From a phage, in sequence record PZ445521.1: a stretch of 64,000 nucleotides of DNA; one strand, written 5' to 3'. Made by a program: the position numbers and the translations under genes. The stretch's first letter is position 1. Each line of letters opens with the position of its first letter. The notes beneath the pieces were generated by a model, which was not told where the DNA came from, made no database searches, and saw nothing but the letters and a program-made list of their open reading frames with translations. Below are positions 495-48,556 of this stretch, piece after piece.

Positions 495-540
495 ATAGTT
501 GTATAGTACCATGGAAGAACATTCTTGTAAACAGTTTTGT
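495..540 (-). promoter_or_regulatory. T4-type early promoter
   Basis: minus strand GTTTACA, 17 bp, TACTATAC, A/T-rich upstream element. Confidence 0.7.
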
Positions 541-3345: not shown

Positions 3346-3405
3346 AGATATTCCTTAGTTTATAGCCCGAGTTATTAGGCTCTTGATATATTATACTCCA
3401 AATAA

Positions 3406-25869: not shown

Positions 25870-25915
25870 GATAGTTGTATAGTACCACAGAGGAACGGTC
25901 TTGTAAACAACTAAA
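25870..25915 (-). promoter_or_regulatory. T4-type early promoter
   Basis: GTTTACA, 17 bp, TACTATAC. Confidence 0.65.
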
Positions 25916-27571: not shown

Positions 27572-27618
27572 ATAGTTGTATAGTACCATAAAGCTTTATG
27601 CTTGTAAACAGTTTTGTG
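27572..27618 (-). promoter_or_regulatory. T4-type early promoter
   Basis: GTTTACA, 17 bp, TACTATAC, AAAAATTTTT upstream. Confidence 0.7.
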
Positions 27619-31144: not shown

Positions 31145-31187
31145 TAGTTGTATAGTACCACAGCTCAAACGGAAAGTAAACCGGTAA
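31145..31187 (-). promoter_or_regulatory. T4-type early promoter
   Basis: GTTTACT, 17 bp, TACTATAC. Confidence 0.65.
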
Positions 31188-37700: not shown

Positions 37701-38174
37701 TTATTTGAACGATTTAACGTACTGAATAGAACCTTTACTATTCACAAAGGCAATTTTACCATTTTTGTTATACATGGTAGCAGTACGTTGATAGCCATAA
37801 GTTTGTTTACCAGATTGATAACCAACTAATGCAAAATTATCTTCGCCCATTTTATTCTGTTTAGCGCGGATGCGTTCATGACCATGTGCCATAAGAACCT
37901 TAGCATCACCGGTTGCAATGGATCGACGAGTTTTTTCATCTTCAACTGTATTAACAAAGTCGTCAAATGAATCAAATTTAGCATGAGATTTATTATACAG
38001 TTTTCCATCTACTGCATAATTATATCCCTGTACATCCATCTCAACTTCTGTACCATCATCCAATACAGCAGTGATTTTTTGACCTTTTTTAAATTTCAAA
38101 AGATCAGTAAAAGATTCAGCAATAATTTGAGAATTAATAGCTGCTTCAGTGATAAATTCTTGATATGTTTTCAT
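37701..38174 (-). CDS. internal protein (ipIII-like), capsid-targeted
   Basis: 157 aa; N-terminus MKTYQEFITEA matches T4 IP capsid-targeting sequence. Confidence 0.65.
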   Translation of the reverse strand: MKTYQEFITEAAINSQIIAESFTDLLKFKKGQKITAVLDDGTEVEMDVQGYNYAVDGKLYNKSHAKFDSFDDFVNTVEDEKTRRSIATGDAKVLMAHGHERIRAKQNKMGEDNFALVGYQSGKQTYGYQRTATMYNKNGKIAFVNSKGSIQYVKSFK

Positions 38175-38190
38175 ATGATTCCTTTAATTT

Positions 38191-38508
38191 TTATTCTTTA
38201 GGAAAATTTTTAGAATATGCGTCGTAAAGCTTATTTCCAATACGACGAAAAACTCTAGCTGCAAAACGATTTTCTGGGTTTTTAATCATAATTTGCATCA
38301 TATAAGTACCCGCGTCTGAAAGAGCTTCTTCATAGTACCCGTTAATTTCTTTAAGAGTCCTACGTTTACCACCAGGACCATCAACAGTGATTTTCCATTT
38401 ACCTGTAGAAGTGCGACTCGGCGGCTCAACTTGTTCAATCCAAATATAACCGCCTTCTACACGTTGTCCTGCAGCAGATTCTGCAATAAATTCTTGATAT
38501 GTTTTCAT
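38191..38508 (-). CDS. internal protein (ipII-like), capsid-targeted
   Basis: 105 aa; N-terminus MKTYQEFIAES. Confidence 0.65.
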   Translation of the reverse strand: MKTYQEFIAESAAGQRVEGGYIWIEQVEPPSRTSTGKWKITVDGPGGKRRTLKEINGYYEEALSDAGTYMMQIMIKNPENRFAARVFRRIGNKLYDAYSKNFPKE

Positions 38509-42997: not shown

Positions 42998-43040
42998 TAG
43001 TTGTATAGTACCATGGAAGAATAGGGATGTAAACAGTTTT
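42998..43040 (-). promoter_or_regulatory. T4-type early promoter
   Basis: GTTTACA, 17 bp, TACTATAC. Confidence 0.7.
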
Positions 43041-44428: not shown

Positions 44429-44504
44429 TGGTCGAGGCAGTAGGGATCGAACCTACGACCTAGGACTTAGAAGGTCCTTGCTCTTCCTTCTGAGCTATGC
44501 CCCG
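44429..44504 (-). tRNA. tRNA-Arg (anticodon UCU)
   Basis: hand-folded cloverleaf; T-arm GGTTCGATCC; anticodon loop CUUCUAA; CCA encoded. Confidence 0.85.
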
Positions 44505-44508
44505 TAAT

Positions 44509-44584
44509 TGGGGTGACCGATGGGAGTCGAACCCATGACTACGAGAATCACAATCTCGAGTTCTACCAACTGAACTACGGCCAC
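44509..44584 (-). tRNA. tRNA-His (anticodon GUG)
   Basis: hand-folded; anticodon loop UUGUGAU; discriminator C; CCA encoded. Confidence 0.8.
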
Positions 44585-44698
44585 ATTAATACCTACTCCA
44601 ACAATCAAGATGTCTTCACACGAAATTAAGAGAAGAGTGATCAGTTCAACCCCTATAATCGCGTCAAGTAGATATTAATGTGACAGTTGTCACAAATT

Positions 44699-44773
44699 TG
44701 GCGGACGTGATAGGATTCGAACCTATAACCAATCGCTTAACAGGCGATCGCTCTACCATTGAGCTACACATCC
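44699..44773 (-). tRNA. tRNA-Asn (anticodon GUU)
   Basis: hand-folded; anticodon loop CUGUUAA; CCA encoded. Confidence 0.8.
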
Positions 44774-44777
44774 AAAT

Positions 44778-44864
44778 TGGTGGGGAGTGGTGGAGTCGAA
44801 CCACCCGAGTCGCAATGACAATGAATTTACAGTCCACACCGCTACCTCTACGGGATAACTCCCC
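44778..44864 (-). tRNA. tRNA-Tyr (anticodon GUA), long variable arm
   Basis: hand-folded; acceptor GGGGAGU/ACUCCCC; anticodon loop CUGUAAA; D-arm pairing not resolved by eye. Confidence 0.7.
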
Positions 44865-44876
44865 TAATTCATAATT

Positions 44877-44951
44877 TGGTGGCCCTGGGTGGAATTGAAC
44901 CACCATCTGGCGATTATGAGTCGCTTGCTTGAACCTTCCAGCTACAGGGCC
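44877..44951 (-). tRNA. tRNA-Ile (anticodon CAU, lysidine-type)
   Basis: hand-folded; anticodon loop CUCAUAA; position as T4 tRNA-Ile. Confidence 0.75.
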
Positions 44952-44952
44952 T

Positions 44953-45028
44953 TGGTGCTGATTGACGGAATCGAACCGCCGACGTCCTCATTACAAGTGA
45001 GTTGCTCTACCTACTGAGCTAAATCAGC
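44953..45028 (-). tRNA. tRNA-Thr (anticodon UGU)
   Basis: hand-folded; anticodon loop CUUGUAA; CCA encoded. Confidence 0.85.
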
Positions 45029-45034
45029 AAAAAC

Positions 45035-45124
45035 TGGCGGAGGCGATAGGATTTGAACCTATGAGTCGCCGGAGCGACTGCCGGTTTTCAAGACCGGTGC
45101 ATTAAACCACTCTGCCACGCCTCC
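45035..45124 (-). tRNA. tRNA-Ser (anticodon UGA), long variable arm
   Basis: hand-folded; anticodon loop CUUGAAA; CCA encoded. Confidence 0.85.
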
Positions 45125-45126
45125 AG

Positions 45127-45200
45127 TCTCCATACAAGGATTTGAACCTTGGACCTCCTGATCCCAAATCAGGCGCTCTACCAAACTGAGCTACACGGAG
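45127..45200 (-). tRNA. tRNA-Pro (anticodon UGG)
   Basis: hand-folded; anticodon loop UUUGGGA; CCA not encoded. Confidence 0.8.
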
Positions 45201-45210
45201 TAAATTAAAT

Positions 45211-45284
<74 letters not shown>

Positions 45285-45289
45285 AAATT

Positions 45290-45376
45290 TGGTGCGAGAA
45301 GTGGGACTCGAACCCACAAGGAAATCATTCCGCAGCATTTTAAGTGCTGTGCCTTTACCAATTTGACCATTCTCGC
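45290..45376 (-). tRNA. tRNA-Leu (anticodon UAA), long variable arm
   Basis: hand-folded; anticodon loop CUUAAAA; CCA encoded. Confidence 0.85.
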
Positions 45377-45377
45377 G

Positions 45378-45450
45378 CTGGGAATAAAGGACTCGAACCT
45401 TTGCATCCTGGAATCAAAATCCAGTGCCTTACCAACTTGGCTAATTCCCA
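45378..45450 (-). tRNA. tRNA-Gln (anticodon UUG)
   Basis: hand-folded; anticodon loop UUUUGAU; 1-nt spacer to tRNA-Leu. Confidence 0.85.
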
Positions 45451-45547
45451 ATTATTAACAAAGGCTCTTTAGCAAGAACCCTTGATGATAGAGGGTATTA
45501 ATCAGTGCGGTATGAGTTAATAATAACAAATAATTCTTAAAGCATAT

Positions 45548-45841
45548 TTACCATTTATGATAATACATATTTACGATGCATTCAAGACCCAAAGGATTCT
45601 TGAAAATATCATATTCAAGAGGACCTTTTTCTGTTTCAATAAAGAAATCAAAATTTACTGTATTAAATTTACGGTCTTCCTTCACTAATTTAACTTGAGA
45701 AGATGAACGGTCAACATAAACCTTTTCAACTTCAAAACATGTTAAAATGCCATAATCATCAATCAAGGCTTTAGCTGCTTCTTGATCATATTTATATCCA
45801 TTTTCAATGGATGATACTTTAGCATAAAGAATCATTATCAA
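45548..45841 (-). CDS. hypothetical protein
   Basis: 97 aa ORF. Confidence 0.45.
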   Translation of the reverse strand: MIMILYAKVSSIENGYKYDQEAAKALIDDYGILTCFEVEKVYVDRSSSQVKLVKEDRKFNTVNFDFFIETEKGPLEYDIFKNPLGLECIVNMYYHKW

Positions 45842-46221
45842 CCTTCATCAACAATAGTATGAGTATGGGCATTTACAATTTGCCACCAATCAAAGCGATT
45901 AGAACCATACATCGGTTTGTTTTCATTTTCTTTGATAATATCACGAAGTTCATCTTCAGTAGCGGCTTTCGCGATTAAATCAGCATATCCACCACGAGGA
46001 TAATAATTATCACCTGCAAAAAGTAAAAAGTTTGGTTTAATGTTATTGAACTCTTCAAGAGTAATAACTGTTCCTGATGGTAGTTGAACAATCTCTACAT
46101 ATTTATATCCTAATTTTTGAGCAGCATCTACTGCTTCAAGCAAAGTATCATGAGCCCATCCAATTTGACAACCTGGCTTTTCAGATGGATTAGCCTGATA
46201 ATCCGCGTACACTTTATACAT
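45838..46221 (-). CDS. hypothetical protein
   Basis: track ORF trimmed to MYKVYADYQ... (127 aa). Confidence 0.45.
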   Translation of the reverse strand: MYKVYADYQANPSEKPGCQIGWAHDTLLEAVDAAQKLGYKYVEIVQLPSGTVITLEEFNNIKPNFLLFAGDNYYPRGGYADLIAKAATEDELRDIIKENENKPMYGSNRFDWWQIVNAHTHTIVDEG

Positions 46222-46222
46222 T

Positions 46223-46408
46223 CTATTCACCTTTAGAAATTTTATCCATAACGACAGCAATTAAACCAATTAAAAATGCTACTACAAGTGAAAACACATT
46301 TTCTGCTGTAGTTAATAATCCACATATAAATCCAACAAACATTGAAAAACTAAAAGCAGAAGCAGAAATTGCAATAGCAACATTTCGAATTAATTCACAG
46401 CGTTTCAT
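46223..46408 (-). CDS. small membrane protein
   Basis: 61 aa, hydrophobic; directly downstream of early promoter 46428-46470. Confidence 0.4.
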   Translation of the reverse strand: MKRCELIRNVAIAISASAFSFSMFVGFICGLLTTAENVFSLVVAFLIGLIAVVMDKISKGE

Positions 46409-46427
46409 TTTATTCTCCTCAGTAGTT

Positions 46428-46470
46428 GATAGGGTAATAGTATCACTACCCTATCTAAAAGTAAACTCAT
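46428..46470 (-). promoter_or_regulatory. T4-type early promoter inside inverted repeat
   Basis: GTTTACT, spacer, TACTATTAC; -10 flanked by GATAGGG/CCCTATC inverted repeat. Confidence 0.6.
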
Positions 46471-46700
46471 TTTTTACGAAAAATTGATTTATTTTCTGCT
46501 GCCCATTTTTCAATAACTGCAACCGGACCAGTAACAACAATTTTATCACCGTAATCTTCTGCGGCGAGTTGACCGAAATTATCTAATGCATCACGAAGAA
46601 CTCCATGAGGCATTTCACCCATTTTATCTTTCTTGCCAGTGTAAATAAACTCAACTTTTACATCAGAAGATTCAGCGATAAATTCTTGATACGTTTTCAT
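46467..46700 (-). CDS. internal-protein-like capsid-targeted protein
   Basis: track ORF trimmed to MKTYQEFIAESS... (77 aa) with GGAGAA RBS; own early promoter. Confidence 0.55.
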   Translation of the reverse strand: MKTYQEFIAESSDVKVEFIYTGKKDKMGEMPHGVLRDALDNFGQLAAEDYGDKIVVTGPVAVIEKWAAENKSIFRKK

Positions 46701-46727
46701 TTTATTCTCCAATTTCACATTTGTTTT

Positions 46728-46770
46728 GATAGGGTAATAGTATCACTACTAAAACCCCGTGTAAACAACT
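46728..46770 (-). promoter_or_regulatory. T4-type early promoter (IP-like gene)
   Basis: GTTTACA, 17 bp, TACTATTAC. Confidence 0.65.
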
Positions 46771-46785
46771 TTGTGAAATTGTTTA

Positions 46786-47073
46786 TTACAAAAGATTTTT
46801 AGCAATAATCTTGAGATGTGCTGCAGAAATGTGTTTAGCTTTAAACAACGCAGTTTCTTCGGCAGGAGAGATAACGATTGTAGCACCATCCTTTTTAGCA
46901 GACCACCCATCACCTAGGTAAACAGTACCTTTGATTTCTTCGCCATCAACCAGACTAATCATTGGTTTACCTTCTCGTCCTTTATTTGCTTTAATAACTT
47001 CAGAAGTAAGAGTAGCTTCGGTAATGGTAGAAACCGGGGTAGTTGTAGAAGTAAATTCTTTAAATGTTTTCAT
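46786..47073 (-). CDS. ipI: internal protein I (IPI)
   Basis: 95 aa; MKTFKEFTSTTTPVSTITEATLTSEVIKANKG... as recalled T4 IPI; own early promoter. Confidence 0.9.
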   Translation of the reverse strand: MKTFKEFTSTTTPVSTITEATLTSEVIKANKGREGKPMISLVDGEEIKGTVYLGDGWSAKKDGATIVISPAEETALFKAKHISAAHLKIIAKNLL

Positions 47074-47096
47074 TTTATTTTCCTAATTAATTTTGA

Positions 47097-47137
47097 TGAG
47101 ATAATAGTATCACTACCTCATCAGCATGTAAACAACT
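47097..47137 (-). promoter_or_regulatory. T4-type early promoter (ipI) inside inverted repeat
   Basis: GTTTACA, 17 bp, TACTATTAT; -10 flanked by GATGAG/CTCATC inverted repeat. Confidence 0.65.
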
Positions 47138-47145
47138 TTGTGAAA

Positions 47146-47842
<697 letters not shown>

Positions 47843-47843
<1 letters not shown>

Positions 47844-48556
47844 TATAGTACCTTTAGTGTATTTTTAATTTTAGAAAAAAGTTCTTCAAGAGAACCATCG
47901 TTTGTAATTACTAAATCGCCATCACGAATTGGCAATCCAGCTTCTGTAATATGAGTATCATTGGATTTTTGACCAGGACGAACTACATGAATTACTGTAG
48001 CACCCATCGCCCTAGCCGCATCCATTTCATGATCTTGACGAGTATCAGGAACGATATAATAATCATAACCTGAGTTAAATTTATCAAGATAATCTAAAGC
48101 AAATAATTTTACCCAATACATGCGGTCGAAGTTATTAACAATCAAATCCGTACCTAGGGCTTGCATCAGACGACGGACTGACCATTGATCTTCAATATTA
48201 TTTATAACGTCAGCAATCTTGTTAAATGCTACGAAATTAACTGCGTCATCAAAAACAAACACACCTTTAATTGGGCTTTTACTATTAAGATAGCAAAATG
48301 CTTGTTCCATAATCGTGATTACTTCTGATTTAGTCAGATTTAAATTAGTCTCACGATCATAGTCAATTCCTTCAAACTCTTTACGAGTTAAGCAAGGATA
48401 GTCAGTGTTTGCTGCAAATACACCCCATGCATAAGCCAATGCATCCTTAATAGGACCAGCAAGTTGATATTTAACTGCAGAATAATTATTCATAATAAAA
48501 TCTGCAGTAGTATCTTTTCCACTACGCTTTACACCACTTAAAAAGATTAGTTTCAT
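47843..48556 (-). CDS. 1: deoxynucleoside monophosphate kinase gp1
   Basis: 237 aa; P-loop GVKRSGKDT; synteny 57A-1-3-2-4. Confidence 0.88.

Follow-up and report, generated by a model that had tools for sequence, protein, structure and literature searches.

Gene content of the ipI locus

Within the window (the whole stretch of phage DNA that was analysed, 64 kb in length), positions 45500–47650 match Shigella phage JK38 (a Tequatrovirus; MK962755.1) at 100% identity and many other T4-like coliphages at 95–98%; we refer to the arrangement found here as that of JK38. All genes at the ipI locus are on the minus strand. In the direction of transcription they are gene 1 (dNMP kinase), 57A, 57B, ipI, a 77-aa gene, trna.4, trna.3, trna.2 and 11 tRNA genes. 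The genes and intergenic elements considered below are, in the same direction:

47146–47604, minus strand: 57B (Acb1, anti-CBASS phosphodiesterase); Pfam Acb1, E 5.4e-60
47093–47151, minus strand: P3, putative early promoter spanning 47104–47132, with a 13-bp hairpin GAUGAGGUAGUGA/UAUUAUCUCAUC over the −10
46786–47073, minus strand: ipI, internal protein I precursor, 95 aa; Pfam IPI_T4, E 7.3e-54; PHROG 4363, internal virion protein
46719–46784, minus strand: P2, putative early promoter spanning 46737–46765, with a bulged 5+5-bp hairpin
46467–46700, minus strand: ip6, 77 aa; PHROG 8111, internal virion protein, E 2.4e-51, matched over its full length
46426–46466, minus strand: P1, putative early promoter spanning 46437–46465, with a 12-bp hairpin GAUAGGGUAGUG/UAUUACCCUAUC over the −10
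46223–46408, minus strand: trna.4 homologue, 61 aa; PHROG 1692; T4 trna.4 is in the equivalent position
45838–46221, minus strand: trna.3 homologue; PHROGs 1411 and 2023 (for trna.3 and trna.2 together)
45548–45835, minus strand: trna.2 homologue; the same two PHROGs

The gene order of T4 is the same as that of JK38 across trna.2-trna.3-trna.4-ipI-57B-57A-1, minus the 77-aa gene. The preliminary description of this DNA was therefore right that the 77-aa gene is absent from T4, and right as well that segB is absent from the locus in the window. The gene already has a name: the depositors of JK38 noted it as 'Ip6', and other records have ip6 or ipVI. The ipI label is carried by the annotations of both JK38 and T4; the propeptide of IPI has 19 residues and ends in ITE. 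On its upstream side the variable locus is anchored by gene 57B, which is conserved.

The trna.4 homologue reaches hydropathy values of up to 3.0 and probably encodes a small membrane protein. It has no capsid-targeting sequence (CTS), and for this reason we do not regard its product as an injected protein. The genes trna.4, trna.3 and trna.2 are separated by gaps of 1–2 nt with no promoter between them. Judged from this spacing, P1 heads a predicted three-gene operon, and trna.3 and trna.2 are not separate cassettes. The earlier view that each promoter drives one small gene thus fails for P1.

A search of 46150–47700 against Rfam gave a single match, to a group II intron, below threshold (16.9 bits versus a gathering score of 34.5, E 0.75); it was dismissed as a chance match.

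Three putative promoter elements with a common core

A 15-nt core, TAATAGTATCACTAC, is present in three exact copies in the 64-kb window, at 46435, 46735 and 47102. The chance expectation is 0.19, three copies were attained in none of 100 shuffles, and no further match was found in the window at up to two mismatches. The copies of the corresponding direct-repeat family, 41 nt in length, begin at 46426, 46726 and 47093, with spacings of 300 and 367 bp. P2 and P3 are 80% identical over 66 nt. P2 is chimeric, being similar to P3 and to the trna.4 promoter of T4 in its upstream half and to P1 in its downstream arm, CCCTATCAA. P3 occupies the space from the 57B stop to the ipI start, and P1 that from the ip6 stop to the trna.4 start.

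Read on the coding strand, each element consists of GTTTAC, a 17-nt spacer ending in TG, and TACTAT, followed by a 5′UTR with a Shine-Dalgarno sequence and an ATG. The UP-like sequence AATAATTTCACAAAGTT, the −35 GTTTAC and the TG-extended −10 TACTAT are the makeup of a T4-type early promoter. The three early-promoter sequences with a shared core that the preliminary description had reported were confirmed, including their positions. The cassettes of internal protein (IP) genes also carry a conserved 5′UTR and the codons for the CTS, MKT(Y/F)(Q/K)EF. [quoted passage not shown]

On this evidence P1, P2 and P3 are likely to be active as early promoters in JK38. In T4, the RNAs of ipI and trna.4 belong to the early class and the RNA of the upstream gene 57B to the middle class (PMC9697503, supplements), as would be expected if the homologous elements in T4 are early promoters that work autonomously. 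The same source gives T4 ipI as early at the RNA level and late at the protein level. We looked for late and middle promoters of ipI and ip6 and rejected both: the late promoter core TATAAATA is absent from 46108–48198, and the intergenic regions of the two genes have no MotA-box middle promoter. A late supply of IP would then need early mRNA or read-through.

Diversity of the locus among relatives

The sample comprised 36 IMG/VR loci fetched by the 57B anchor and five GenBank phages, 41 loci in all. Gene trna.4 was located in 38 of them, and among these 38 the number of CTS genes from 57B to trna.4 was zero in three, one in 17, two in 11, three in six and four in one. The 63 IP-like ORFs fell into 16 sequence families, and the hairpin over the −10 was kept by most of the promoter elements detected at related loci.

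Two observations limit the generality of the pattern. At some related loci (L027, L021 and L024, for example) IP genes abut without a promoter element, so not every IP gene is a cassette of its own. The second IP locus of the window (37701–38508) has no such element separating its two genes; the pattern is accordingly not general to all IP genes.

Boundaries of indels and replacements

We aligned the intergenic elements of JK38, T4, slur03 and teqsoen. T4 and slur03 differ from JK38 by a single 300-bp gap, equal to one ip6 cassette and to the P1–P2 repeat spacing, and the boundaries of this indel lie inside the shared promoter core. The lone trna.4 promoter of T4 and slur03 consists of the upstream half of P2 (AATATTTCACAAAGTTGTTTACATAGGGTTTTAG) and the downstream half of P1 (CCCTATCAACTACTGAGGAGAATAAAATG), joined in GTGATACTATTACCCTATCAA.

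Replacements have the same kind of endpoint. An unrelated 85-aa CTS protein stands in place of ipI in teqsoen and L009, and an unrelated 102-aa CTS protein in L039; in all three, homology restarts where the promoter elements and the codons for the CTS lie. Locus L040 has an ip6-like gene only. Elements in L025 and L032 are chimeric, with a P1-type 5′ arm (ATAGGG) and a P3-type 3′ arm (CCTCATC), and in L020 the 5′ arm of the stem GGTCTATAG/CTATAGACC is lost. Judging from these endpoints, we infer that the elements act as recombination joints.

Because the elements separate coding sequences that are unrelated to one another, tandem gene duplication fails to explain the array. The modular, recombination-prone array of injected or accessory proteins depicted in the preliminary description is borne out by the cassette boundaries, the replacements, the chimeras and the literature, with the exception of trna.4, which has no CTS and is not counted as injected.

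Hairpins over the −10 element

Each of the three elements can form a hairpin over its −10. The P1 hairpin has 12 bp (−16.4 kcal/mol, z −3.20), the P3 hairpin 13 bp (−14.8 kcal/mol, z −3.59) and the P2 hairpin, which is bulged, 5+5 bp (−14.6 kcal/mol, z −3.15). The inverted repeats previously noticed at two of the −10 elements, GATAGGG/CCCTATC and GATGAG/CTCATC, are indeed present, but they are only the outer parts of the P1 and P3 hairpins, and the third element has its bulged hairpin as well. The inner part is formed by the core TAGTG/TATTA with G·U pairs, and the loop is AUAC; the −10 hexamer is placed in the loop and the 3′ arm.

In an equal frame of 45 nt, P1–P3 fold with −12.9 to −16.4 kcal/mol, versus −1.5 to −10.1 kcal/mol for 12 other early-promoter-like sites in the window. 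Since those 12 sites fold weakly, the hairpin belongs to the ipI locus and not to T4 early promoters in general. This result bears on a simpler reading, in which P1–P3 are ordinary strong T4 early promoters that look alike through the promoter consensus and local tandem duplication, and the hairpin arises incidentally and serves neither recombination nor RNA biology. That reading agrees with the invariant positions being promoter positions (TG, TAYTAT and GTTTAC), with an inner stem made of extended −10 and −10 sequences, and with the presence of CTATCAAC after the −10 in several other early promoters of the window. It leaves unexplained why the 12 other sites fold so much more weakly and why none of them matches the 15-nt core at up to two mismatches; the outer stems, moreover, lie outside the consensus positions and covary, the endpoints of indels and replacements fall on the elements, and chimeras exist. 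We consider it improbable.

The stems differ by lineage with pairing kept (GGTCTATAG/CTATAGACC, GGTAGGACTA/TAGTCCTACC, GATGGGATAA/TTATCCCATC and GTGTAGGGATA/TATCCCTACAC), and the stem AGGGCTATG/UAUAGCCCU has a relative, AGGGTTATG/UAUAACCCU, that is changed on both arms. In 11 of 12 lineage variants with differing stems the z-score against dinucleotide shuffles was −2.6 or lower. Covariation was counted over 34 distinct elements with a −10 of the GATACTAT type, which were not selected for pairing. The share of cells that pair is 73.8% in the JK38 register, versus 27–63% in slid registers; two-sided changes occur in 8 of 12 pairs (2–4 in slid controls), and 20 cells are changed on both sides (3–13 in slid controls). 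The observed values were attained by 3 to 13 of 500 shuffles, in a single-register test that is diluted because the stem register varies among element classes. About a quarter of distinct elements have a weak hairpin or none, so the stem is not obligatory.

Covarying arms and a shifting register argue for a structure formed by nucleic acid and not for a fixed protein-binding site, which the preliminary description had considered. The palindromes might be operators at which a dimeric protein, from the phage or the host, binds DNA sequence-specifically and represses or tunes the early promoters. Their centre is the −10, so that a protein sitting there would block access of RNA polymerase, and among early-promoter-like sites in the window they are specific to the ipI locus; however, we find an operator role very hard to reconcile with arms that are wholly different by lineage with pairing kept and no single sequence preserved (GATAGGG/CCCTATC, GATGAGG/CCTCATC and the first three pairs listed above), with the two-sided changes, with a register that moves relative to the −10 among classes where a protein site would conserve both sequence and position, and with the G·U pairs of many stems, which are mismatches in duplex DNA. 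We know of no sequence-specific repressor of T4 early promoters. [quoted passage not shown]

The sense fold is more stable than the antisense fold in 39 of 56 distinct elements (Wilcoxon p 0.008). This bias points to RNA in a suggestive way only, because the elements are related and the G·U pairs, with part of the bias, lie in the invariant promoter core. The 5′ arm is upstream of the expected start site, and for this reason the hairpin would exist as RNA only in read-through transcripts. There is no U-run after the stems of P1–P3 and no intrinsic-terminator-like site in 45400–47900, which makes a classical intrinsic terminator role doubtful; with no stem followed by a T-run, the 'terminator' label of the RB49 PeSL was not transferred to these elements. 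Among possible roles, the most likely would be that of an attenuator, a processing site or a 3′-end structure that insulates the cassettes.

In JK38 some 12–30 nt separate the end of the 3′ arms from the Shine-Dalgarno sequence, which leaves the ribosome-binding site outside the hairpin. At four related loci (L010, L015, L026 and L041) the 3′ arm covers the Shine-Dalgarno sequence of trna.4; in some relatives the hairpins may in this way switch translation. Translational control by a promoter placed within a hairpin is known for the T4 genes e, soc and I-TevI. The JK38 elements share with them the promoter inside a stem-loop, the lack of the 5′ arm in the gene's own transcripts and the ability of read-through transcripts to fold. 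The internal promoter of the classical cases, however, is late, and the ribosome-binding site in JK38 is free.

Ip6, an internal protein candidate

The ip6 gene is present in 246 phage records, and its T6 copy has 94.8% identity. The family is narrow (11 clusters, every one from T4-like phages) and is the commonest family at the locus, found at 16 of the 41 loci sampled. The N-terminus of Ip6, MKTYQEFIAE, is a CTS that is invariant among the homologues; IAE, at residues 8–10, is a gp21-type cleavage motif. The prohead protease of T4 cleaves by the rule (L/I)xE, with which this motif agrees. The mature domain of Ip6 is predicted to have about 67 aa. Together these features suggest that Ip6 is packaged in the virion and injected into the host.

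The IPI encoded in the window is a bona fide member of the family of IPI* and Ip1–Ip3. Ip6 has a like CTS, small size and position at the same locus. It differs in the rest of the protein: the stretch common to Ip6 and IPI is the first 14 residues only, with no sequence similarity beyond residue 14; the AF2 model of Ip6 (pLDDT 82, residues 1–9 disordered) has a generic ferredoxin-like sandwich as its predicted fold and gave no fold match with IPI*; and the pI of Ip6 is mildly acidic (5.8), that of IPI basic (8.9). With neither sequence or fold similarity nor a demonstrated target, Ip6 is not assigned to the IPI*-like GmrSD inhibitors.

Ip1, Ip2 and Ip3 each inhibit a distinct GmrSD type IV restriction enzyme, and ten further ip genes tried against new GmrSD variants gave no new pairs; the same study proposes GmrSD variants as the targets of every IP-locus protein (PMC12373910). 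By analogy, Ip6 may be another anti-defence effector.

Interpretation and relation to known systems

We interpret the region as the ipI-side hyperplastic locus of T-even phages, made up of promoter-plus-hairpin cassettes of genes for small, capsid-packaged and injected proteins that are shuffled by recombination; we put the probability of this interpretation at roughly 0.88. It brings together the repeats, the covarying hairpins, the boundaries of indels and replacements, the diversity of cassettes and the CTS, all of them observed in the loci compared. The recombination pathway at the repeats, which we infer or take from the literature, might be as follows. The repeats of ∼40–65 bp flank unrelated coding sequences and could for this reason provide transferable homology on which homologous recombination by the phage itself acts, either intragenomic or between co-infecting relatives. 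A crossover in the shared core would insert, delete or replace a whole promoter-plus-gene unit and leave expression intact; ip6 would be one such unit, making the difference between JK38 and T4, and the hairpin would also mark the site of crossover. Early transcripts would supply the IP products, which the CTS would direct into the prohead; the gp21 protease would trim them, and they would enter the host together with the DNA. IPI is known to block a GmrSD type IV restriction enzyme, and Ip6 might be a further effector against defence.

Polymorphism of the T-even IP locus was reportedly the subject of Repoila, Tetart, Bouet and Krisch in 1994 (EMBO J 13:4181). As cited by Arbiol et al. (2010), the 1994 work placed PeSL-like elements at both T-even IP loci; these elements have T4 early promoters and weaker, AT-rich stem-loops and may lie behind the plasticity of the loci (PMC2839356). 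The site beside ipI, from 57B to the tRNA region, is the same as in JK38, and so are the CTS-bearing internal proteins, one of them named ip6, and the conserved promoter/stem-loop flanks of variable IP genes (described in PMC2839356 and PMC4122927). Judged via the descriptions in these later papers, there is no substantive difference, and JK38 represents one more arrangement (ipI plus ip6), common to many sequenced Tequatroviruses.

[quoted passage not shown] Comeau et al. (2014) repeated the link between PeSLs and the IP locus (PMC4122927). The JK38 elements agree with PeSLs in being intergenic composites of early promoter and stem-loop in a hyperplastic region, in flanking small non-essential genes, and in having indels and replacements bounded by the elements, with crossovers in the loop or core. 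They differ in that Arbiol et al. see analogy and not homology between the elements of the T-even IP loci and the RB49/phi1 PeSLs. The T-even elements are of T4 type, with weaker AT-rich stems without polyG/polyC, whereas the RB49/phi1 PeSLs have near-perfect sigma-70 promoters; terminator activity was shown for an RB49 PeSL, and the JK38 stems have no U-run.

The feature is thus already known in kind, and at this same locus, from the literature of 1994, 2010 and 2014; as that literature covers the system, the present analysis adds no new principle. A further idea, which goes beyond this literature and which we offer tentatively and think rather unlikely, is that Ip6 acts against a defence beyond the GmrSD variants tried so far and that the hairpins, formed in read-through RNA, are a conserved insulator or processing signal for cassette-autonomous expression. 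If true, the hairpins would be more than recombination landmarks.

As an illustration of the shuffling of anti-defence genes in large lytic phages, the locus is of textbook grade. Portable promoter/hairpin repeats would move expression-ready genes among relatives and so change the set of restriction systems that a phage can overcome, which is of relevance for the prediction of host range and the design of phage-therapy cocktails.

Chimeric promoter elements in related loci

Two of the related IMG/VR loci fetched with 57B as anchor, L025 (element at ~1378) and L032 (~1006; positions in slices with a 3300 offset), carry chimeric promoter elements. The 5′ arm is of the type found in P1, the early promoter and hairpin element upstream of trna.4 (ATAGGG), and the 3′ arm of the type found in P3, its counterpart upstream of ipI (CCTCATC); hairpin stability is reduced to −7.0 kcal/mol. 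A third locus, L020 (element at ~673), retains the 3′ arm alone of the GGTCTATAG/CTATAGACC pair. All three elements look like footprints of crossovers within the loop or core.

The trna.4 promoter element of L010, L015, L026 and L041 contains a long-range stem, ATCTCCATTTG…CAAATGGAGAT (−22.3 kcal/mol, z −5.4), located in the trna.4 upstream region, ~730-830 nt past position 3400 of each locus. Its 5′ arm begins directly after the −35 element, and the trna.4 Shine-Dalgarno sequence lies inside the 3′ arm; such a stem could form in read-through transcripts only. T4 genes e, soc and I-TevI are under translational control, of which the trna.4 stem is reminiscent.

Other promoters and internal-protein genes in the window

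An extended sequence running through and past the −10 element, TGGTACTATACAACTATC, is common to several other early-promoter-like sites, none of which has a hairpin of the type seen at the internal-protein (IP) locus:

503-531, minus strand, early-promoter-like site
25879-25907, minus strand, early-promoter-like site
27580-27608, minus strand, early-promoter-like site
31152-31180, minus strand, early-promoter-like site
43005-43033, minus strand, early-promoter-like site

A second IP locus (37701-38508, minus strand) consists of two adjoining genes, whose products share the N-terminus MKTYQEFI(A/T)E:

38191-38508, minus strand, IP-like gene, 105 aa (PHROG 3966, unknown function)
37701-38174, minus strand, IP-like gene, 157 aa (PHROG 3155, ‘internal virion protein’)

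The 16-nt gap between them has no promoter/hairpin element, whereas the ipI-side locus does have such elements between its IP genes.

IPs are required for prohead assembly. The T4 late-promoter core TATAAATA occurs inside neighboring genes, and no copy lies immediately upstream of ipI or ip6:

45789-45796, minus strand, core inside trna.2
46100-46107, minus strand, core inside trna.3
48199-48206, minus strand, core inside gene 1

In T4 omics data, ipI RNA was classed as early and ipI protein as late (PMC9697503).

Flanking genes

The tRNA array is the following:

44429-45450, minus strand, 11 tRNA genes (Arg, His, Asn, Tyr, Met, Thr, Ser, Pro, Gly, Leu, Gln)

No ORF for the homing endonuclease segB was found in this array, whereas the T4 array has 8 tRNAs, Ile among them, with segB after tRNA-Arg; the close relative ECML-134 also has a homing endonuclease there.

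Existing annotations of 57B (47146-47604, minus strand) vary between ‘hypothetical’ and ‘RNA ligase’. The gene matches Pfam Acb1, an anti-CBASS 2H-phosphodiesterase (E 5e-60). By this match, the conserved anchor gene beside the variable IP locus is an anti-defence gene too.
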